Shown piece after piece: positions 3,628 through 17,639 of a stretch of 64,000 bases of DNA. The number at the start of each line of letters is the position of its first letter. The stretch's first letter is position 1. The position numbers and the translations under genes were made by a program. The notes under the pieces are model-generated. The model was given only the letters and a program-made list of their open reading frames with translations, was not told the origin of the DNA and searched no databases. Source of the stretch: a virus; IMG/VR virus record IMGVR_UViG_3300045988_121463, one strand, 5' to 3'.

Positions 3628-3894
3628 ATGAAACAAGATATAGAATTTGCTGTTCCTCTTTTTAAAGCTGGTGCAGAATGGCGCATTAACAGCGTGTGGC
3701 ATTCTATAACAGTAATTCCAGATTGCCACCGTTTTATTGTGTTTCTCCCTAAGAAATCAACAATAGGATCAAAGAATCCAATTATGGGTATATTGGAAGA
3801 GAACAAAACTTTTATATCCAGCCGTCCAGGATGTATTTTATGCAGATTAGATGAAATGGAATCATGGGCTTATTTGGATGATCTATTACCTTAG
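3628..3894 (+). CDS. hypothetical protein
   Basis: 88-aa ORF. Confidence 0.3.
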   Translation: MKQDIEFAVPLFKAGAEWRINSVWHSITVIPDCHRFIVFLPKKSTIGSKNPIMGILEENKTFISSRPGCILCRLDEMESWAYLDDLLP

Positions 3895-3927
3895 GTAATT
3901 ATATACTCAATTTTAAAAGTTAGAATT

Positions 3928-4176
3928 ATGAAAAAAGATTTAACAGACAAAGAAAAAGAGGAAAGAATGAATTACCTTACCATTCATAAATGTAAAAACG
4001 AGGATGAACGTAAAGAGTTAAAAGAATTATGTGATTGGTATTTTAAGGATACTCCTACATTAACTATGTCTTTTTCTTTAACAGAAGAAGATTTTCGGGT
4101 AACAATGGAAAGGGACGTGGAGTTGTCGGAGGTAGCCAGAGCGGTAAAGAATCAACACCATAAGAAGAAAATTTGA
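3928..4176 (+). CDS. hypothetical protein
   Basis: 82-aa ORF. Confidence 0.35.
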   Translation: MKKDLTDKEKEERMNYLTIHKCKNEDERKELKELCDWYFKDTPTLTMSFSLTEEDFRVTMERDVELSEVARAVKNQHHKKKI

Positions 4177-4182
4177 AAGGTT

Positions 4183-4398
4183 ATGACCGACAGAGAACTT
4201 CTTGAAGAAAACAATAAGATGTTAAAGGAAATTCTAAGTTTTGTGAGAAAAGTTGATTCTGCTGAATACAGGGATCATCAAGACTTTATGGAATTTCTTA
4301 GAAATGTGGCAGCCGATATATGGGTGGAATATACGGAGCCTGAACAAAGAAGTAAGTTGTTTAATTTAATGAATAAAAAAAATGAAAACAGTTTTTGA
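4183..4398 (+). CDS. hypothetical protein
   Basis: 71-aa ORF. Confidence 0.3.
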   Translation: MTDRELLEENNKMLKEILSFVRKVDSAEYRDHQDFMEFLRNVAADIWVEYTEPEQRSKLFNLMNKKNENSF

Positions 4399-5050
4399 TT
4401 TAAGCAGAGATGAGATTGTGGCATTGACAGACGAAGAGATAAGTCTGTATATAGACAAGGAGCTTGCTGGTAAAGGTATTCCAATTGAAGCTAAAAACTG
4501 GAATATAAAGAACGAAAAAGAAGTCGTGTATCCAAGAACTGGAGTTCCAGTATTTATGTTAAAAGATATCGGCATCGGTTTTAGAACCGTAGAAGGTGCA
4601 ACTGAGGTGGCTAATTTGCTTGTTAAATATAATGCATTTAAAATAGAATCAAGGTTTCTGACAGGATCGTATGAACAGTTTTGGATCATAAAAGAAAGTG
4701 TTTGCCCGGCTATTAAAGGGGAAGCGGGGTATAGCAAGGAAGAGTTTGATAAGGTAAACAAGGAAAACAAAGATCCAGAATTGGAAAGTATAAATTCCTT
4801 CAATGATACTGTGAAAAAAGCCAATGAAATTAAAGACAGGGTGTTGAAATACGTGTACAACATAAAACAAGAGCGTTCATATAACAATGACCTGGTTGGT
4901 ATCTTTGAAAGGTATAAAGATATAGCAGACGGTGATATGGAGGTAGCTATGAATTTTATTAAGGAAGCCTATCCATTCAATGAAGAAACAGAGTCGTTTA
5001 TCAGAAAAAAGTTTGACATGCCTATACCGGACGAATCAAAAGAGCAGTAA
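4382..5050 (+). CDS. hypothetical protein
   Basis: 222-aa ORF. Confidence 0.45.
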   Translation: MKTVFDLSRDEIVALTDEEISLYIDKELAGKGIPIEAKNWNIKNEKEVVYPRTGVPVFMLKDIGIGFRTVEGATEVANLLVKYNAFKIESRFLTGSYEQFWIIKESVCPAIKGEAGYSKEEFDKVNKENKDPELESINSFNDTVKKANEIKDRVLKYVYNIKQERSYNNDLVGIFERYKDIADGDMEVAMNFIKEAYPFNEETESFIRKKFDMPIPDESKEQ

Positions 5051-5199
5051 TTAAGCTAAATTAAATCATTTTGAATCTTTTTTATTATCAAAAGACATAT
5101 CTTTGTCCCAAAAAAAACAAACAGAATGGAAGAAAAAGAGATAAAAGAAGCTATGATTGAAGCCCTGACGCATTTAGATTAGAGGGGTGTAAGTATTTC

Positions 5200-5385
5200 G
5201 TGGCTACGATAGTAAATGAGGAGGAAAGAAGATTTGATATGAGCCTAAGAATGTCACAGTATCAATTGGCGTTAGTTATAAAAGGCATCTTATCTAATAA
5301 TGAAATGATGATGATGGACGTTTTGCAGTGGTGTTCTGAAAGATTTAAAAATAGTATAGAGAAAGGAAAGAAATCAACTAATTAA
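5200..5385 (+). CDS. hypothetical small protein
   Basis: 61-aa ORF downstream of TATCTTTG (5098-5105). Confidence 0.3.
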   Translation: MATIVNEEERRFDMSLRMSQYQLALVIKGILSNNEMMMMDVLQWCSERFKNSIEKGKKSTN

Positions 5386-5396
5386 ATATTAATACA

Positions 5397-5867
5397 ATGA
5401 ATCGCTGGTTTGAAATTACGGTAAAAGCCGAGATTGATAATATCGAGAACGGCAAAAAAAAGAAAGTAACTGAAAAGTATTTGGTAGATGCCTTGTCTTA
5501 CACAGAGGCAGAATCAAGATCGTTGGAGATCTTCAAGGATTTGTACAATTCTTTCGAGGTTGTAAAAATTAATCCTATTAAAGTGTCGGAAATCTTCTTC
5601 AACGGAGAGGCTGAGTACTGGTATAAGTGTAAGGTGAATTACATTACACTGGATGAAAAGAAAGGTAAAGAAAAGAAAACACCATGCTATATGTATGTCC
5701 AGGCCGGCAATCCCAAGGATGCCGAAGCTGTGTTGACTAAAGGCATGCAGGGTACGTTGGGCGACTGGAACTGCGAAGCTATTGCTGAAACGAAGATCAT
5801 AGACGTATTCAAATACGATCTTCAGAAGGGAGCTGAAAAATTAGGCGAGAAGAAGAGTGAAGAGTAA
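5397..5867 (+). CDS. hypothetical protein
   Basis: 156-aa ORF. Confidence 0.45.
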   Translation: MNRWFEITVKAEIDNIENGKKKKVTEKYLVDALSYTEAESRSLEIFKDLYNSFEVVKINPIKVSEIFFNGEAEYWYKCKVNYITLDEKKGKEKKTPCYMYVQAGNPKDAEAVLTKGMQGTLGDWNCEAIAETKIIDVFKYDLQKGAEKLGEKKSEE

Positions 5868-6096
5868 GGCTGATGTAGTTTCCAACATAGCGCTTGTTGT
5901 GGCGATAATATCATTGCTTTCAGCAGGCGCTTTCCTTCTGATAGTGATTAAGACAGACGAGGTATCTAAATTATTAATGAACGTACCTTATCTACTGGCT
6001 TCAGCGGGATTGTTCTTTTCAATAATATCATTATTATTCGAATGGAAAGCAAGGAAAAGAAGCTATACGTCTGCGAACGATGCGGACGAAAAGTGA
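5857..6096 (+). CDS. small membrane protein
   Basis: 79 aa with two hydrophobic helices (IALVVAIISLLSAGAFLLIVI; LLASAGLFFSIISLLF). Confidence 0.35.
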   Translation: MKSKADVVSNIALVVAIISLLSAGAFLLIVIKTDEVSKLLMNVPYLLASAGLFFSIISLLFEWKARKRSYTSANDADEK

Positions 6097-6563
6097 TGAT
6101 AAGAAGTCATGGCTTATGCCAGGCTTGCAGGAGCAAAGAGTTGACTCCGAAGAAGAAAAACAGAATTACATCCATTAAAAACAGCAGCAAGAAGAAAAAG
6201 TTAGAGAGCCCGGATTTATCCGGGTTTTTTCGTCTTATGCTGGAAGAGCTAAATAGTATTCGGATGTCTATGACTGGTAGGGCTATTCATTTTCCTACAG
6301 TATGTAACGTATGTCACATACTTCCGAAAAGGATATATAAGTCGGTTGCCACTTGCAGAGATAATATAGTTTTTCTACATGAATCGGAGCATACGGTATT
6401 CGACATGTATCTTGACCGGATAGAATTTGATAAACTTGAAACAGAATTTCCTTTTGTGTGGAAATATGCGGTAAAGAAGGTACTGGATATGGAAAGCAGG
6501 GGAATGATTAAAGAAAGAGGTAGGTTGATTATTGAAATAATTGACAGATATAACCCCAAATAG
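6042..6563 (+). CDS. zinc-ribbon protein
   Basis: N-terminal CERCGRK ... CQAC zinc-ribbon-like cysteines followed by a basic linker. Confidence 0.4.
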   Translation: MESKEKKLYVCERCGRKVMIRSHGLCQACRSKELTPKKKNRITSIKNSSKKKKLESPDLSGFFRLMLEELNSIRMSMTGRAIHFPTVCNVCHILPKRIYKSVATCRDNIVFLHESEHTVFDMYLDRIEFDKLETEFPFVWKYAVKKVLDMESRGMIKERGRLIIEIIDRYNPK

Positions 6564-6645
6564 TATTTGAGAAAGCAGCCACAGATATTGATGAGACTGT
6601 AACTGTGTTGTATTATGTTAAAGAGGAATTAATTGAGAAATTGCG

Positions 6646-7965
6646 ATGATAGAACAGAAAATAAAAATATTGACAGATTTAGGGTTTGTACCTATGGTGG
6701 AGGGAAAAGGAAATACGTTGTTTAGAATGAACGATGTTGTGATGTCGGTGTCAGATCCTAATCAAACACCGGAGCAATTGAGAAAGGAAGTTATGTCTTT
6801 AATAAAAAACAAAGATATAGCAGAAAGAGGCGGACGGGTTCCAGTAGTTAAAGAGCCGGAGCCTGAGCCAGAGCAGGCCCAGGGAGAAGAACCGGAAGCT
6901 CCGGCAGAGGAAGCAGATCCTAACCCTGGAGAGGAAGATTCGAATCCGTTTACAGAAAATCAAGAAACGTTAGAGCCGTTTTATATCTGCGATGAGTTGA
7001 AGAAGATTGAGACTCCCAAATTCGTAAGATTGACATTAGACGATAATCGTTTTTATGTAAGGAAGATGGATGATGGAACGGCCAAGATATATGCTTCGGT
7101 AACAACTTTAATCAAAGATGGGTATGTAGATGATAAGACCGCACTTCAGGAATGGAAGCAAGAGATGAAGATGCTTGGTCGCAATCCGGAAGAGGTGGCA
7201 CAGTATGAAGCCGACAGGGGAACGATCATGCACTATCTGTACGGATTGTACCTAACAGGTAGAGATATGGTCTTAAATCGAAGCTTTGTAGTTAAGACAG
7301 TGCAAGAAGGCAAGCTGAAAATATCTAAGAAAAATCTTGATCGGTTTTTTAACAGTATTGATGATCTTGATGATATGATTGTCAGAATTATGAAGTTTGC
7401 CAAATTTTGTTCAGAGTATAAGGTTAAGCCGATGATGATTGAAAGAATATTGTCATTAGAAGACTATTTAGTAGCTACGCCGATAGATGCGATGGTTAAA
7501 ATGACATTCAAATACAAAGAAGAAGGTTATTTTGGAGCCGTGTATCAAAGGGCTACAGGGCAGTTTAAAAAAGGTGATCCGAAGAAGGAGGTAAGAGACG
7601 TGGAGAAGGAAGAAGTGGTTATTCTCGACTTTAAATCAGGGGGAATATGGGAATCATACGCATTTCAATTAGAAGCTGAAAGAAGAATGGTTAAAGCATG
7701 GTATGGGATTGATGCACGTATTATGAACTTTTCTCCAAAAAGCACGAGCAGCAAAGGATATACGTTGAAAGAATGGACAGAAGACAGTATAGCACTTGAA
7801 AAGGCGGACTGCGTGTTCCAACAAGGTATGTTGAATCACCTTAGAAAAGATAAGAAGTTCAAAGTGAGAAAAGGAGTGCTGAATATCAATAAGCCGTACA
7901 ATGAAGAGGATCATACGGTCGTGTATGATATTGCAGAGGAAATGTCTAAAAGATTCATAATATGA
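6646..7965 (+). CDS. putative PD-(D/E)XK-family nuclease with acidic linker
   Basis: PIDAMVKM ... VVILDFKSG ... FQLEAE resemble RecB/Cas4-family motifs II and III (hhhD, D-x-K) and QxxxY. Acidic E/P-rich low-complexity region at residues about 70-110. Confidence 0.4.
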   Translation: MIEQKIKILTDLGFVPMVEGKGNTLFRMNDVVMSVSDPNQTPEQLRKEVMSLIKNKDIAERGGRVPVVKEPEPEPEQAQGEEPEAPAEEADPNPGEEDSNPFTENQETLEPFYICDELKKIETPKFVRLTLDDNRFYVRKMDDGTAKIYASVTTLIKDGYVDDKTALQEWKQEMKMLGRNPEEVAQYEADRGTIMHYLYGLYLTGRDMVLNRSFVVKTVQEGKLKISKKNLDRFFNSIDDLDDMIVRIMKFAKFCSEYKVKPMMIERILSLEDYLVATPIDAMVKMTFKYKEEGYFGAVYQRATGQFKKGDPKKEVRDVEKEEVVILDFKSGGIWESYAFQLEAERRMVKAWYGIDARIMNFSPKSTSSKGYTLKEWTEDSIALEKADCVFQQGMLNHLRKDKKFKVRKGVLNINKPYNEEDHTVVYDIAEEMSKRFII

Positions 7966-10689: not shown

Positions 10690-11001
10690 TTGTGCTATTA
10701 TCAATCAAAAAAATGTAAGAAGATGGGCAGATCAACAGAGTACTACAGGACTCATCCCGAAGCCAGGAAGAAAAAGGCTAAAAAAGACAAGGAGATAAAT
10801 GCCAGACCGGAACAGAAAGCCAAACGCCGGGAGCTTGGTCGTAAAAACTACGAAACGGACAAGAAGAAGGGTAAGGGCTGGAGAAAAGGCAAGGATTGTT
10901 CTCATACCAAGAACGGTCTTAGGTATAAATCAGTAAAAGCTAATAGGGGATCCAAATCGGATACAAAAGGTGACAAAAATGCACGAGGAGATAGCAAATA
11001 G
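10690..11001 (+). CDS. highly basic Lys/Arg-rich protein (putative nucleic-acid binding)
   Basis: About one third K/R over 103 aa (KKKAKKDKE ... KKKGKGWRKGK). Confidence 0.35.
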   Translation: MCYYQSKKCKKMGRSTEYYRTHPEARKKKAKKDKEINARPEQKAKRRELGRKNYETDKKKGKGWRKGKDCSHTKNGLRYKSVKANRGSKSDTKGDKNARGDSK

Positions 11002-12103
11002 GATAGATATAAGAAGGATATTCAAGACCTCTAAACAGGTCATGGAAGAGGCGTATGAGAATATCTTGAAATACAGGCGGGGAGAGCTTATCCCCGCTAA
11101 AACCGGATACGATTATATTGATGAGGCTTTGCTTGGAGGTATTTTCCCTCAGCATGCTATTGCCATAGGAGCCCGGCCATCTGTAGGTAAATCGTATGTG
11201 GCCCAAAAGATATTGGAAAATGTGATGAATCCGATGATCAACCCGCAAGCAGAAGATTATTTTCTTGTTAATTGCGAGTTCGAAATGAATCCTCAAGATC
11301 TTCTTCTTCGTAGAATGAGCCAGGATATGAAAAAGCGGGCTCCTGAAATATTAAGAAGGCAAGATTCTAATACAGTGGAAGAGATGAGGATGTTTGAAAT
11401 CCTTCAAGGTGAAATCAGGAATAATATAATATACATCGATGCTCCGTGTACGGTAAAAGAGTTTGAGGCGGCTGTGTATCATATAGCTACCAAACACAAA
11501 GACAAACGTCTTATAATATTTAAAGTCGATCATATTGCTTTGATAAAAAGAATGGGGTTAGATCCTAAGTCGGCTATAGATGATTTGGTGGCGGTTATGA
11601 ACGAAGCTAAATTAGTATATAAAAACATATTTTTCCTCATCATATCACAATTCAACAGAGAGATAGAAGGAAGGATAAAAAGCCCACAAGAGCAGCCTCC
11701 GCGTCTTTCTGATTTTTACCAATCTGATACGCTGGGTCAGTTATGTACGTTAATGATAGGTTTGCACAATCCTCGTAGGTACGGGCTGGATAAGTATATG
11801 ATATTTGGGAAAGATTGGTATCAGACTCTTGATAGGTTTAAAACTGAAAACAAAACATCATTCAGGACAGCCGGACTGGTGTTTCATCATATACTGAAGG
11901 TAAGGCAAGTTAGTATGGAAGAGCTTACTAATACAATCCACCCAGAGATTCTGCCGGGGCATGGATGGATGTACGGGGAGGGCGGGACGAAGTTCGTGAA
12001 CCCCAACCAGCCGCCGACGCCGCCCAAGCTCTATACTGTGGAAGACGTTACGGACAATCAGGAACAAGAACAAGAGACAAAAGAAGAACAGTCATTGTAT
12101 TAA
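10970..12103 (+). CDS. DnaB-like replicative helicase (RecA-fold C-terminal domain)
   Basis: Walker A GARPSVGKSYVAQK, Walker B-like IIFKVDHIAL, H3-like ISQFNREIEGR (DnaB SQLxR motif). Confidence 0.7.
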   Translation: MTKMHEEIANRIDIRRIFKTSKQVMEEAYENILKYRRGELIPAKTGYDYIDEALLGGIFPQHAIAIGARPSVGKSYVAQKILENVMNPMINPQAEDYFLVNCEFEMNPQDLLLRRMSQDMKKRAPEILRRQDSNTVEEMRMFEILQGEIRNNIIYIDAPCTVKEFEAAVYHIATKHKDKRLIIFKVDHIALIKRMGLDPKSAIDDLVAVMNEAKLVYKNIFFLIISQFNREIEGRIKSPQEQPPRLSDFYQSDTLGQLCTLMIGLHNPRRYGLDKYMIFGKDWYQTLDRFKTENKTSFRTAGLVFHHILKVRQVSMEELTNTIHPEILPGHGWMYGEGGTKFVNPNQPPTPPKLYTVEDVTDNQEQEQETKEEQSLY

Positions 12104-12935: not shown

Positions 12936-13649
12936 ATGTACATCAATTTCAGACAACTTGCAGCATCAGACATGACTCCTAATGATCTTGCCAATCTTCT
13001 TGCCATAAGACAGAAGGATACGGTTATGATCGAAGCCATGCCGGAAGAAGATGCTGGGAGGTATATAGAGCTTGGCCTGGTTGAGAAATTAAAATCAGGC
13101 GTGATGAGATTGACCAACAAAGGAACGTCTTTTGTGAATTATATAGAGACACCGGAGATGACAGACGAGGTTCTGGAAACGTTGAAGATTATGATAGGAA
13201 TGTACGAATCATATTCAAAAGACATAGGTGTCAGCAGAAAAGAAGCGGAATCCAGATTGTGTTGGTTTATGGGTAACACTTCATTCAAGAAAGAGGTCAT
13301 ACTTCAGGTAACGGAATCTTATATAGCAGAGTCAGGAGATTATACAATGAGCTTATGTAACTTCATATGGAAACCGCCTTCTCAGGCTTTTTCAGTTCAT
13401 ATGAACCTTAAAAATTCAAAGCTCTTTGACTTAATAGCTGAAAAATTTAAGATCGCTACCGAGCCTTATTTGGAGTCTAAGAAGAATAAGGAAATGGATT
13501 GGTTGTTTGCCGTATCTAAATTGCCTACGCCGCCAGCTAAAGGCAATCCGGATTATTTGTTTACCGGAAGTTCTGAAACAGACAAAGAGCGATTGAAAAA
13601 CATAAAAACGTATTTATTTAACAAAATTAGAAAGCAATGGAAAAAGTAA
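12936..13649 (+). CDS. hypothetical protein
   Basis: 237-aa ORF immediately upstream of the ACP gene. Confidence 0.45.
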   Translation: MYINFRQLAASDMTPNDLANLLAIRQKDTVMIEAMPEEDAGRYIELGLVEKLKSGVMRLTNKGTSFVNYIETPEMTDEVLETLKIMIGMYESYSKDIGVSRKEAESRLCWFMGNTSFKKEVILQVTESYIAESGDYTMSLCNFIWKPPSQAFSVHMNLKNSKLFDLIAEKFKIATEPYLESKKNKEMDWLFAVSKLPTPPAKGNPDYLFTGSSETDKERLKNIKTYLFNKIRKQWKK

Positions 13650-13888
13650 GAATCAGAAAGATAATAGAGGATATAATTATTACTCAGTTTCTTAATTCGG
13701 AAATAGATATAGTTCATGAAGAAGATGTGACGTTTAAAGAACTTGGATTAGATTCTGTTGATCAAATTGAACTGGAAGTGATGGTGGAACAAAAATTCAA
13801 TATTGTTATTATTGATTATGATATGGAGACCATCAAAGATATGACTGATCTTGTTTACAAAATAATAACAGAAGGGTATGGGAAGTGA
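13637..13888 (+). CDS. acyl carrier protein-like (phosphopantetheine-binding) protein
   Basis: ELGLDSVDQIELEVMVEQKF aligns with the ACP helix II motif [20 protein letters not shown], including the Ser attachment site. About 83 aa, acidic. Confidence 0.7.
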   Translation: MEKVRIRKIIEDIIITQFLNSEIDIVHEEDVTFKELGLDSVDQIELEVMVEQKFNIVIIDYDMETIKDMTDLVYKIITEGYGK

Positions 13889-14366
13889 TATAATTTTATG
13901 CATGGCTTTAATAGCATCATTTGCTTTTGTTATACAGTTTTTGTTGTCGATATTAGGATCTGATCTGGATACGGATATTGACAATGCTTCTGATTTAAGC
14001 ATGTCTTTATCAGACATCATATCATTTAAGGGTATAACACATTTTATTCTTGGATATAGCTGGACTACCTACTTTTCGGGTTCTCATTTAGTAGGGGTTG
14101 TGATAGGGTCGTTTTTCTTTATCGTTTTGTTTTACGTATATAAGTTACTTCTTAAGTTAAAGCAAGAAATGGTGTACGAATGTCCGGAAGATTTAAATGG
14201 CAGAGAGGTGGAGATAGTATTTAGATCAGGGAAGAATCATTATATGGTAAATATTTCGAAAAATGGAAGACAGGAGCAAATGAGAGTAAGATGTTTGTCT
14301 GGAAAAACTTACAAAAACGGTGACAAGGTGAATATAAAATACGAAGAAGGAGAACTAAGTATCTAA
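13878..14366 (+). CDS. NfeD-like membrane protein (YuaF-like)
   Basis: N-terminal hydrophobic helices, then a C-terminal beta-rich GxVxV/GD segment. Directly upstream of the flotillin gene, as in the yuaF-floT operon. Confidence 0.5.
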   Translation: MGSDIILCMALIASFAFVIQFLLSILGSDLDTDIDNASDLSMSLSDIISFKGITHFILGYSWTTYFSGSHLVGVVIGSFFFIVLFYVYKLLLKLKQEMVYECPEDLNGREVEIVFRSGKNHYMVNISKNGRQEQMRVRCLSGKTYKNGDKVNIKYEEGELSI

Positions 14367-14398
14367 TTTTTTTTATCAACAATTAAATTTTAAAAGTT

Positions 14399-16132
14399 AT
14401 GACAACAATCATGTACGTGTCAGCTATCTTAGCTGTAGTGATTATTTTGACAATCATCGGAGTCTTATCAAGGTATCGTAGATGTAAGCCTAATCAGGTC
14501 TTGGTCGTTTATGGTAAGACAGGTGGGGAAAAGAAATCGGCGAAATTATATCATGGTGGAGCGGCATTTGTCTTGCCTATTATTCAAAGCTATGATGTTT
14601 TGTCAATGGAGCCTATGCAAATAGATTGCAAGCTTACCGGTGCTTTGTCATCTCAGAATATTAGAGTAGATGTTCCTACGACTATTACAGTAGCTATCAG
14701 TACAAATCCAGAGATCATGCAAAATGCGGCAGAAAGACTTTTGGGAATGGATACCGAATCTACTGAAAATCTTATTACGGACATCGTTTACGGTCAGATG
14801 CGTTTGATTATTGCTGAAATGACAATCGAAAAACTTAATTCTGACAGGGATGAGTTTTTGGATAAGGCAAGAAAGAACATTGATAACGAGCTTAACAAGT
14901 TAGGTCTTTACCTCCTGAACATCAACATCAGTGACATTAGAGACGAAGCCGGTTATATTATGAACCTTGGTAAGGAGGCTGAAAGTAGGGCTCTAAACGA
15001 AGCACAGGCTAATATCGAAGAACAGGAGAAGCTGGGGGCTATTAAGATTGCTGTACAGCAGAAGGAGAAAGAAACGGCTGTGGCTAATACCAAAAAAGAA
15101 CAAGAGATTCAAATTGCTTGTACTGAAAAAGAAAAGGAAACAATAGTAGCTGAAACGAAGAAAGAAAAAGAAATAGCTTTGGCTTTAACCGATAAAGAAA
15201 AACAGATTGGTGTAGCTCAAGCAGATAGAGATAGGGCTGCGGTTATCGCAAAAACTTTAACCGACAAGGAATCGGCGATCGTAAGATCTAAGGCAGAACT
15301 TGAAGTAAATAAAGCCGAGGCTGAAAGGATGGAAGAAGTCGGAAAGAACAAGGCTGAAGCTGACAAGGAAGCAGCTATAGCAATACAAAACTCTGAAGCT
15401 CAGATTAAGAAGGCTGAGGCTGAGAAAAATGCGTCTATAGGATACAACAATGCCCAGAAGGAGGTTGCTGTGTCAGTATCAGAATTGCAGATTATCAAAG
15501 CTCAATCAGAAAAGAAGGCCGGAGAAGAAAAAGTTAAATCGGAAGCGGCTGTAAAAACAGCAAAAGAGCTTGCAGACAAAGAAGTGGAAGAAGCTAAGGC
15601 TAAGAAAGTTCAGGCTGCGCTTAAGGCTGAAAAGATTGTGCCGGCTGAAACCCAGAAGGAAGAGGCTATCTTGCAAGCTGATGCCGAGGCCGAGAAGATC
15701 AAACGCCGGGCTGAGGCTGAGGCATCAGCACATTTGGCAAAAGCTGAGGCAGAGGCAAAAGCTATTCAGATGAAGCTGGAGGCAGAAGCCGAAGGTAAGA
15801 AAAAGTCGTTAATGGCAGAAGCCGACGGATTTAAGGCTATGGTGGAAGCAGCAGAATCCAATCCTCAGATCGCCATCCAGTACAAGATGGTTAATCAGTG
15901 GAAAGAAATTGCCGGAGAACAGGTTAAGGCATTTGAGCACATTAACCTCGGAAATATCACGGTATTTGACGGCGGTCAGAACAGTACCGGTAATTTCCTT
16001 AACAATGTTGTCAAGACCGTCGCTCCGGCATTGGGAGTCATTGATCAGCTTCCGATTGCAGATACTTTAAAGAAATTAAAAGGAGATGACAAAAAAATAA
16101 ATACAATGGCCCAAGGTTACACTTGGGCCTAA
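14399..16132 (+). CDS. floT: flotillin-like SPFH/band-7 protein
   Basis: N-terminal TM helix. SPFH region YRRCKPNQVLVVYGKTGG ... GGAAFVLPIIQ ... NINISDIRDEAGYIMNLGKEAESRA is collinear with B. subtilis FloT. Long Glu/Ala-rich coiled-coil (EA repeats) and flotillin-type C-terminus. Confidence 0.85.
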   Translation: MTTIMYVSAILAVVIILTIIGVLSRYRRCKPNQVLVVYGKTGGEKKSAKLYHGGAAFVLPIIQSYDVLSMEPMQIDCKLTGALSSQNIRVDVPTTITVAISTNPEIMQNAAERLLGMDTESTENLITDIVYGQMRLIIAEMTIEKLNSDRDEFLDKARKNIDNELNKLGLYLLNINISDIRDEAGYIMNLGKEAESRALNEAQANIEEQEKLGAIKIAVQQKEKETAVANTKKEQEIQIACTEKEKETIVAETKKEKEIALALTDKEKQIGVAQADRDRAAVIAKTLTDKESAIVRSKAELEVNKAEAERMEEVGKNKAEADKEAAIAIQNSEAQIKKAEAEKNASIGYNNAQKEVAVSVSELQIIKAQSEKKAGEEKVKSEAAVKTAKELADKEVEEAKAKKVQAALKAEKIVPAETQKEEAILQADAEAEKIKRRAEAEASAHLAKAEAEAKAIQMKLEAEAEGKKKSLMAEADGFKAMVEAAESNPQIAIQYKMVNQWKEIAGEQVKAFEHINLGNITVFDGGQNSTGNFLNNVVKTVAPALGVIDQLPIADTLKKLKGDDKKINTMAQGYTWA

Positions 16133-16263
16133 TTGAAGAAATAAAAGCAGCATTCATAGATTTCCTGCCTGCGGGAACAGTGATTTTAAGTGCTTTACTA
16201 ATTACGATATTTTTAACATGGATTTTGGACAAGATTTAGAACCAGAAGAACTGACCGGGCATT

Positions 16264-16623
16264 ATGATCAGTGTTATGGAATTGATTTTGAAACAGAAGA
16301 AGAGGAGGATGAAGAATATGACGGATGAGGAATTTGCATTAGATAATAAGAAAAAAGTTGTTGTAAGAAAAAGAATATCCTATTTAAGCAAAGGGGATAA
16401 AGTGTGGATCGTGTCTTCCGACGGCTACCTGCTACACACGGACGTCGTTCGGCGGGATCGGGGCCGATCTTATGTGGATATAGACGGGATACTGTATTGG
16501 AAGCGAGGATTAGATGGCAAGCATCGTAATCGTAATAACTACATGCAGTTTGCCATGACGCCGGAGGACGGTAAGAAGTATGTCGTATATTACCCGGAAG
16601 GATTTAAAGACAATGACTTATGA
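16264..16623 (+). CDS. hypothetical protein
   Basis: 119-aa ORF. Confidence 0.4.
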   Translation: MISVMELILKQKKRRMKNMTDEEFALDNKKKVVVRKRISYLSKGDKVWIVSSDGYLLHTDVVRRDRGRSYVDIDGILYWKRGLDGKHRNRNNYMQFAMTPEDGKKYVVYYPEGFKDNDL

Positions 16624-17639
16624 TGGTCCCGGAAACGCATTTGCTATATAAGGAGTTTAATGGCGTGAAACGTCTTGCCATTTCCTATTCCCAGATAGAT
16701 ACGTTTCTTACCTGTCCAATGAAATGGTATAAGACTTACGTAGAGGGCAAAAGGTCTACGGAAAAACAAGAAGCTACGTCTTATGGTACGGTTATCCATA
16801 AGACACTGGAATACTTCTTTAAGAACGGAAGACAGCCTTCTGGAAAAGACCTGGGGGAAGCTATAAGTTACTATGCTTACCAAGAAGACATACCTTGGCA
16901 ATCACCGGAAAATATGATGATAGCCATGAAGCAATCCGGGGAGCTTCTTGCTTGGATTGTGGATCTGTTCAAAAAAGACGGCAATAGGTTTATGATAGCT
17001 GATAGTGATCTTAATCCCTGCGAGAAACTTATCAGACACAGCGCTATAGTTGGAGTCGAAGAAGATTTTGTGCTGCCGTACCGTCTTCCTAAGCCTGTTA
17101 ACATAAATGGAGTAATTCATACTCATGTGTACATAGTAGGATCGGTAGACCTTCATCTGGCTATAAAAAGCAAGAACGTAGTTCACCATTATGTCATAGA
17201 TTGGAAATCAGGTAATAAGGTTTTTGATTCTAAGAAGTTGGAAACAAATTTACAGCATCCTATATATTCATTTTACATCTATAGAAGATATGGTGGGGTT
17301 CTACCAGATATGAACATCTATTTCTTTACCAGGACCAGGCAGTACCAAAAGGTTAAGGTAGATGAGGAACGTAAAACAAAATCTATAGAGATGCTAAATG
17401 ACACTTTGTCTAAAATGTATGATTTTGAAGATAATAGTGTAAAATCATTTCAAGCGTACATCCAGGGAGCAGAAGGAGCCAGGTATAGCAAGCGGCGTGC
17501 CACCCTAAGCCAGCCTGTTTCGCAAAACAAGCTACCCTGCCCGTCAGCACTGTGTTATTATTGTGACTTTGGATTACATAACAAAAACGAATGCCCTTTC
17601 TCTTCGGATTGGGATCCGTCTAAAAAGATAAAACGATGA
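16620..17639 (+). CDS. Cas4-like PD-(D/E)XK nuclease with Fe-S-type cysteine cluster
   Basis: N-terminal CPMKWY, VDLHLAI, VIDWKSG (D-x-K), QHPIYSFY (QxxxY), C-terminal CPSALCYYC ... C cysteines. Confidence 0.6.
   Translation: MMVPETHLLYKEFNGVKRLAISYSQIDTFLTCPMKWYKTYVEGKRSTEKQEATSYGTVIHKTLEYFFKNGRQPSGKDLGEAISYYAYQEDIPWQSPENMMIAMKQSGELLAWIVDLFKKDGNRFMIADSDLNPCEKLIRHSAIVGVEEDFVLPYRLPKPVNINGVIHTHVYIVGSVDLHLAIKSKNVVHHYVIDWKSGNKVFDSKKLETNLQHPIYSFYIYRRYGGVLPDMNIYFFTRTRQYQKVKVDEERKTKSIEMLNDTLSKMYDFEDNSVKSFQAYIQGAEGARYSKRRATLSQPVSQNKLPCPSALCYYCDFGLHNKNECPFSSDWDPSKKIKR

Follow-up and report, generated by a model that had tools for sequence, protein, structure and literature searches.

A host-derived flotillin and its NfeD2-like partner, probably kept as an auxiliary gene pair in a clade of gut phages

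SPFH2 genes of bacteria pair with "minimally conserved NfeD homologs" such as YuaF and YqiJ, and these NfeD2 partners are told by three hydrophobic stretches, an all-beta domain and their operon position (Hinderhofer et al. 2009; PMC2636767). In yuaF-floT of Bacillus subtilis and yqiJ-yqiK of Escherichia coli, the gene directly upstream of that for a flotillin-type, coiled-coil SPFH protein encodes a small membrane protein, which has some three hydrophobic stretches and ends in a soluble all-beta domain, and NfeD2 and SPFH2 genes are laterally transferred as a pair (PMC2636767). QmcA-YbbJ of E. coli is an SPFH-NfeD complex (PDB 8z5g; Tan et al. 2024, as cited in PMC12624060). On the viral side, SPFH/Band-7 domains are encoded by phages (PHROG 200 "lipoprotein", Vibrio phage KIT04, phage GIB1), and a paper has remarked on the SPFH lipoprotein of GIB1 as a protein that lacks an explanation (PMC13239085). 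Here we analyse a stretch of 64,000 nucleotides of virus DNA (IMG/VR record IMGVR_UViG_3300045988_121463), the whole of which we call the window, where three plus-strand open reading frames (ORFs) at 13637-16132 code for an acyl carrier protein (ACP), a small membrane protein and a flotillin. A first-pass annotation of the window had read them as a three-gene lipid-raft operon, a description that is partly supported by our results. We think it probable that the functional unit is a two-gene operon of an NfeD2-like protein and an SPFH2-type flotillin, captured once from the host, kept vertically in the phage clade and serving as an auxiliary function in host takeover.

It had been pointed out in that annotation that NfeD followed by flotillin mirrors the yuaF-floT operon. 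This is correct, and the phage pair is actually a copy of the NfeD2-SPFH2 operon of the host itself, its sequence relationship to yuaF-floT and yqiJ-yqiK being distant. Over its full length, the phage flotillin shares 62-66% identity with those of 29 loci from Bacteroides, Phocaeicola and related Bacteroidales, and when only the chromosomal copies of Bacteroides and Phocaeicola are considered the identities are 62-70% for the flotillin and 35-41% for its partner (35%, E = 9e-30, against the partner of Bacteroides xylanisolvens). In all 13 bacterial loci examined, a gene for a protein of 165-177 amino acids with the same architecture and motifs as the phage partner lies directly upstream of the flotillin gene. 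The GenBank record of the closest phage calls the partner only a "transmembrane protein". The operons of B. xylanisolvens XB1A and Phocaeicola vulgatus ATCC 8482 resemble the phage pair in gene order, short spacer and architecture and also share the D-x-D acidic loop, the SFKG..HF motif and the C-terminal OB domain of the partner. Unlike them, the phage pair is found among replication genes, preceded by an ACP gene and followed by a small transmembrane (TM) ORF, and it is set apart by insertions and deletions (indels) in multiples of 11 amino acids. When a tree was built by neighbour joining for each of the two genes, the copies of both phage sub-clades grouped together as the sister branch of Bacteroides plus Phocaeicola, and the depth of this branch is similar to that of the split between the two genera (the flotillin is 73% identical between genera and 64-70% identical between phage and host). 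Because both trees place the phage copies alike as one branch, they fit one old co-capture, and the simplest reading is that the ancestor of this clade of gut Bacteroidaceae phages would have acquired the host operon in a single event and that both genes would have been inherited vertically ever since. This reading agrees with the known joint lateral transfer of NfeD2 and SPFH2 genes (PMC2636767).

The prediction that the 577-amino-acid protein is a full-length flotillin, with anchor, SPFH domain, helical repeats and C-terminal domain, was borne out. Pfam recognises Band_7 (PF01145; 91.6 bits, cut-off 23.6) at residues 30-211 and Flot, the domain typical of flotillin C-termini (PF15975; 38.9 bits, cut-off 27), at residues 450-559, and direct reading of the sequence adds an N-terminal hydrophobic anchor, MYVSAILAVVIILTIIGVLS, at residues 5-24 and a helical region at about residues 215-450 that is rich in E, A and K and built of 11-residue repeats. 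Furthermore, a comparison with all PDB sequences matched solely eukaryotic flotillin-1 and flotillin-2 (E = 9e-23 to 2e-13). The NCBIfam FloT model NF058507 gave 146 bits, under its equivalog cut-off of 700, and identity to E. coli YqiK is 23%; judged by these sequence matches, the protein is a member of the flotillin family and not the equivalog of B. subtilis FloT. The PHROGs hold no flotillin family, the lone weak match being to the SPFH "lipoprotein" phrog_200 (E = 4.5e-5), and in the GenBank phage collection a full-length match was found in phage csAssE-Sib alone. The SPFH proteins of other phages mentioned above differ from the present flotillin in that they consist of Band_7 only and are about 30% identical to it over the SPFH domain alone; in the case of Vibrio phage KIT04, the "flotillin family protein" has Band_7 without the Flot domain and its gene has no recognisable upstream partner.

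The helical region of the flotillin varies in length. Indels between phage and host flotillins measure 11 or 22 amino acids, that is, multiples of 11 (L092 and L099 are host loci that show this length polymorphism). In-frame deletions of 85, 90 and 99 amino acids also occur in this region (residues ~312-437; window 15330-15710) in alleles that are otherwise 99-100% identical. We considered DNA tandem repeats as the source of this variation and found none, the periodicity lying at the protein level. All this suggests modular helices based on hendecads, in which helix length, and hence the height of a putative cage, may be naturally variable.

The identity of the 162-amino-acid partner had to be established by other means than profile matches, as it gave no match in Pfam (PF01957 included, at E values up to 10), NCBIfam, PHROG or PADLOC, and two Bacteroides orthologues also failed to match PF01957 even at E = 10. 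According to its AlphaFold2 model, the protein would have a TM helix, which an acidic and disordered loop connects to a TM hairpin, and would end in a beta domain of six strands (an OB barrel), the latter with a predicted local distance difference test (pLDDT) of ~80-86. When this model was compared with the PDB by Foldseek, the second-best match was full-length YbbJ in 8z5g over 147 of 148 residues, a weak match in its scores (E = 0.016, TM-score ~0.3), and the solved domain of YuaF was also among the fold matches. In addition, a 36%-identical homologue in a viral structure library is named "NfeD-like C-terminal domain-containing protein". An exhaustive profile search delimited a family of ~224 cluster representatives, mostly of 155-185 amino acids, of which one out of 58 members matched PF01957 (E = 6e-5). 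The family profile aligned by hhalign with the whole OB domain of YbbJ at E = 3.8e-4 with a probability of only 36%, and gave marginal matches to YqiJ (E = 0.02) and YuaF (E = 0.34). Because it has the architecture, the fold and the synteny by which NfeD2 proteins are told, we call this protein NfeD2-like, a name that these three features fit and for which the sequence-level support is marginal. The NfeD/YuaF-like label given by the first-pass annotation therefore stands for fold, topology and synteny, while PF01957 and all other models leave the protein unmatched.

The family is Bacteroidota-wide and no Pfam family describes it. Its members carry a near-invariant acidic D-x-D-x-D in the loop between TM1 and TM2, followed by SFKG..HF (residues ~28-56 of the phage protein; window 13960-14050), the conserved residues being D31, D33, S49, K51, G52, H55 and F56. 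The acidic loop with SFKG..HF looks like a putative site of cation binding or of contact with the flotillin. A candidate "long NfeD" of 448 amino acids (P0241), which scored 1.7e-11 against the family profile, was rejected as a gene-call chimera with a DPP-IV domain.

The pair is under strong purifying selection. Between the two phage sub-clades, a comparison in which synonymous divergence (dS) is saturated (>2.5 or undefined), the flotillin is 82% identical at the amino acid level with a nonsynonymous divergence (dN) of 0.12, the lowest in the block and below that of the DnaB-like helicase (78%, dN 0.15). The NfeD2-like partner follows with 62% identity and a dN of 0.27 and keeps all its motifs, and the ACP comes last with 38% and a dN of 0.59. 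The possibility that the pair is a neutral passenger, or a piece of host DNA in decay that does nothing for the phage, is disfavoured and we give it hardly any credence, as several nonsense and deletion alleles do circulate but the flotillin and the motifs of the partner have been held in this way over saturated dS, with the trio encoded in 83 of 83 related phage loci examined.

At the same time, damaged alleles of the pair recur in nature. At least four distinct in-frame deletions join the N-terminus of the partner to the C-terminus of the flotillin (TM::Flot fusions); they come from independent samples and from both sub-clades, and the ACP gene is intact in all of them. Two other, widespread alleles turn Gln codons of the flotillin gene into stops (loci L129-L134): Gln426 is changed from CAA to TAA together with a 1-nucleotide frameshift (14 contigs read; a cluster of 348 sequences) and Gln508 from CAG to TAG (9 contigs read; a cluster of 172 sequences). 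Recoding of TAG or TAA to Gln is known in some gut phages. We rejected this explanation for the present alleles: the tRNA-Gln of the phage has the anticodon UUG and a search for suppressor tRNAs gave none, the long ORFs of structural proteins can be read without interruption under code 11, and the allele with TAA carries a frameshift as well. Phages with a destroyed or truncated pair were assembled as long contigs (76-142 kb) from many independent samples, and because such genomes occur so widely the pair is non-essential. Strong conservation together with recurrent damaged alleles therefore indicates that the pair is a conditionally useful accessory function under purifying selection and not part of the phage core.

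How such a pair would act can be outlined from what is known of SPFH assemblies. A 44-mer dome of flotillin has been solved (PMC13000311), and bacterial flotillin stabilises membrane proteins in microdomains (PMC11222466). From the solved SPFH assemblies (the flotillin dome, HflK/C and QmcA-YbbJ) and from bacterial flotillin biology, we infer the following cage mechanism. As the pair sits in an early block of replication genes, it would be expressed along with that block. In the infected cell, the flotillin would be inserted into the cytoplasmic membrane by the hydrophobic anchor at its N-terminus and would oligomerise through its helical region and the Flot C-terminal domain into a dome- or cage-like SPFH assembly. 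The partner would be held in the same membrane patch by its three TM helices, with its OB barrel touching the flotillin as YbbJ does with QmcA; YbbJ resembles the model of the phage partner and the complex offers a template for an NfeD partner on an SPFH cage, although QmcA is stomatin-type (SPFH1), unlike the phage flotillin. The phage scaffold may then supplement or replace the flotillin scaffold of the host during infection. Plausible benefits would be that membrane-protein complexes and membrane order are maintained or that FtsH-type quality control is biased, and other candidate beneficiaries may be envelope complexes or the exclusion of other phages.

A bolder version of this mechanism, to which we give little probability, is that the flotillin forms a cage purpose-made by the phage, which would corral a host machine (FtsH, envelope synthesis or secretion) or exclude rivals. 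The ACP and the small TM protein would then act as clade-specific cofactors, and the null and deletion alleles would reflect trade-offs that depend on the host strain. If true, such a cage would be a virus-specific elaboration of the bacterial "lipid raft".

The role of the first gene of the trio deserves separate consideration, as the first-pass annotation had made the ACP a component of a lipid or microdomain module. That the 83-amino-acid protein belongs to the ACP family with an intact Ser site was confirmed: PF00550 (PP-binding) matches with 26.7 bits (cut-off 20.8), phrog_5934 "acyl carrier protein" with 2e-8, all 65 matches among PDB sequences are ACPs, and Ser40 (LGLDS) is invariant between the sub-clades, the ACPs of which share 38% identity. 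The NCBIfam AcpP models gave 28-30 bits against cut-offs of 66-106, and on these scores the protein is a member of the ACP family and not a housekeeping AcpP. Its AlphaFold2 model (mean pLDDT 45, from 12 near-identical sequences) is too poor for a reading of the fold. No phosphopantetheinyl transferase, acyltransferase or fatty-acid (Fab) genes are annotated in the 151-kb genome of csAssE-Sib (according to the depositors' annotation, in which many genes are "hypothetical"), and the phage ACP presumably relies on the phosphopantetheinyl transferase of the host. Small stand-alone phage ACPs with the Ser site are known from large phages of Bacteroidota-type or Gram-negative hosts (PHROG 5934 and the Yersinia jumbo phages fHe-Yen9-03/04), and ACP modules occur in freshwater flavobacterial jumbophages (PMC13573597). 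Unlike these, the present ACP shares only about 41% identity, over 49 residues, with the closest ACP of a GenBank phage, and the genome has no annotated lipid or polyketide enzyme to go with it.

On the three-gene reading, the ACP would deliver acyl chains or lipids to the NfeD-flotillin microdomain, or be scaffolded by it, and the three proteins would act jointly on the lipids of the host. The three genes are indeed adjacent and in the same order wherever an intact phage locus was examined, across both sub-clades (the second one being represented by L113 and L114), and the ACP and partner ORFs overlap by 11 nucleotides, in addition to the invariance of the ACP Ser. Against this, no ACP gene adjoins the flotillin pair in any bacterial locus examined; the rates are discordant, the dN of the ACP being about five times that of the flotillin; natural phage genomes that have lost the pair by deletion keep an intact ACP; and the genome lacks annotated genes for acyl transfer. 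The overlap itself says little, as stop/start overlaps and dense packing are the norm across the whole block and even the unrelated 237-amino-acid ORF upstream overlaps the ACP gene. The trio had also been described as overlapping throughout, which holds for ACP and partner but not for partner and flotillin, where the ORFs are separated by a spacer of 32 nucleotides, similar to that of the host operon. We consider joint action of the three genes doubtful, and because host pairs have no ACP neighbour, the ACP evolves so much faster and survives deletion of the pair, and stand-alone phage ACPs are known, we argue that it is a separate fast-evolving phage gene, a neighbour rather than a third component of the pair, a functional link specific to this clade being conceivable.

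Slightly less credible still is that the pair serves superinfection exclusion or competition between phages, by means of a flotillin/NfeD assembly that alters the inner membrane and blocks the DNA entry of other phages or of the same phage. Membrane proteins are common exclusion factors, the genes are located in the early block, and strong conservation with recurrent natural loss is typical of conditionally useful conflict genes. PADLOC, however, returned no match for the three proteins at E <= 0.1, and the pair is an ordinary operon of housekeeping type in essentially all Bacteroides genomes sampled; to our knowledge, it has not been regarded as a defence system in these hosts. An essential role as a dedicated membrane platform for DNA replication or virion assembly of the phage is very improbable, since the phages lacking a functional pair show it to be non-essential. 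The location of the pair, flanked by the DnaB helicase on one side and by the PD-(D/E)XK exonuclease plus helicases on the other, would be in favour of such a platform, but position within a dense early block is weak evidence of function. Both roles, and the change in membrane fluidity also put forward in the first-pass annotation, are guesses.

Several points weigh against the auxiliary two-gene operon that we prefer. The trees were simple neighbour-joining ones, without support values. Nonsense alleles make up 520 of ~3,100 flotillin sequences (about one sixth, counted from the largest clusters listed) and consequently the benefit of the flotillin is not universal. The ACP is always adjacent to the pair in the phage clade, its independence being argued from the absence of linkage elsewhere. 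Neither the scan for sigma-70 promoters and terminators nor that for the Bacteroides-type -33/-7 pattern rose above chance level, and no such signal was found near the trio. Finally, the clade is uncultured and the steps of the mechanism are ones that we infer.

The region 13000-17000 of the window is 96.9% identical to GenBank OR575929.1, phage csAssE-Sib, a genome of 151,256 bp from the human gut (Russia) that is classified only as Caudoviricetes and is the sole close relative among GenBank phages; the 237-amino-acid upstream gene and the L113-type ACP gave no further matches there. The depositors' annotation of csAssE-Sib lists hallmarks of crAss-like phages (ring and muzzle proteins, BACON-type carbohydrate-binding proteins, a diversity-generating retroelement and tRNAs) and labels the trio "acyl carrier protein", "transmembrane protein" and "flotillin family protein". 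A search of the literature retrieved no paper on a phage flotillin with an NfeD partner, on csAssE-Sib or on flotillin in crAss-like phages. The claim that such a module is not described in phage genomes has to be qualified: it agrees with our search for papers on the flotillin/NfeD pair, but it does not hold for the parts, since this record already names the ACP and the flotillin and phage SPFH proteins have been noted (PMC13239085). In IMG/VR, 161 contigs encode the flotillin, and single clusters at 90% identity contain 2,433 flotillin and 2,357 partner sequences. The coordinates and setting of the three ORFs reported by the first-pass annotation were confirmed (Table 1): the flanks form a co-directional block of replication and recombination genes with a DnaB-like helicase, a PD-(D/E)XK exonuclease and an SF2 helicase, and giant virion proteins are encoded on the opposite strand, from which it follows that the window is phage DNA.

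Table 1. Position of the trio and of other features in the window
Feature	Coordinates	Strand	Basis or remark
Divergent ACP, 83 amino acids	13637-13888	+	PF00550, phrog_5934; LGLDS Ser40
NfeD2-like flotillin partner, 162 amino acids	13878-14366	+	Predicted fold, topology, synteny
Flotillin (SPFH2 type), 577 amino acids in the window, 566 in most relatives	14399-16132	+	Band_7, Flot
Small single-TM ORF, 50-52 amino acids in relatives; shortened in the window	16086-16238	+	Overlaps the flotillin stop
GC-rich hairpin at the 3' end of the flotillin gene	16108-16129	none assigned	
Upstream ORF, 237 amino acids, unrelated	12936-13649	+	Overlaps the ACP start
DnaB-like helicase	10970-12103		
Ro60-like RNA-binding protein, 544 amino acids	61509-63143	-	phrog_850, E = 3e-30
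Two tRNA genes	63259-63477	-	ARAGORN: Lys-UUU and Asp-GUC

Outside the clade, the nearest GenBank relatives of the DnaB-like helicase are those of the Cellulophaga phages phi4:1 and phi17:2 (~145-kb genomes), with 29% identity, and recognised crAss-like genomes rank after them with about 25%. Far from the trio, the window codes for a Ro60-like protein, named "Ro sixty-related protein" in the GenBank record, adjoined by two tRNA genes that the GenBank record gives as Tyr and Lys. A search of the whole window with Rfam returned one tRNA at the gathering score, and a Y-RNA-like element was not found. In locus L125 (logan SRR15404651 contig, 3663-7676), a sliding-clamp-like gene replaces the PD-(D/E)XK exonuclease and the helicase downstream of a TM::Flot fusion, a gene order that suggests either rearrangement on a larger scale or a chimera created in assembly.

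The window and its relatives differ where the flotillin gene ends. A homopolymer at about 16091-16097 is A7 in the window and A6 in 80 of 84 related loci, the L113-type sequence being found in the "other two". The extra A lengthens the flotillin from 566 to 577 amino acids (11 more codons) and shortens the conserved 50-amino-acid ORF downstream; because A7 stands in place of the usual A6, the 577-amino-acid form is a minority allele, and A7 could have arisen by real slippage or be an error of sequencing. The small TM ORF (MTKNKYNGPRLHLGLIEEIKAAF...TWILDKI) is annotated or called in csAssE-Sib, L113, L115 and L130, and its product might be a fourth partner of the flotillin unit. The hairpin has the form GGCCCAAG-GTTACA-CTTGGGCC and is identical in 67 of 89 sequences surveyed, with close variants in 9; in the L113 clade it reads GGCCCAGG...CCTGGGCC, both arms being changed with the pairing kept. 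In a scan it was terminator-like on the minus strand only, such sites being not above chance in the region, and the plus strand has no U-tract. The hairpin may act in the stability or processing of the mRNA or in translational coupling, the constraint being ambiguous as it overlaps protein-coding sequence.

The roles of bacterial flotillins and of their NfeD partners are still unclear, and the phage pair offers a natural experiment on them. In a very common clade of gut phages, with thousands of sequences in the databases, the pair is under purifying selection while null alleles and alleles that differ in the length of the coil are circulating. This suggests that the scaffold pays off in infection under some conditions only, and it makes available an allelic series that is ready for testing what the flotillin cage contributes. 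Furthermore, a partner family that extends throughout the Bacteroidota gains a name and a context where hidden Markov models currently fail to recognise it. With this pair, membrane-microdomain scaffolds would be added to the functions of host origin for which gut phages have auxiliary genes.

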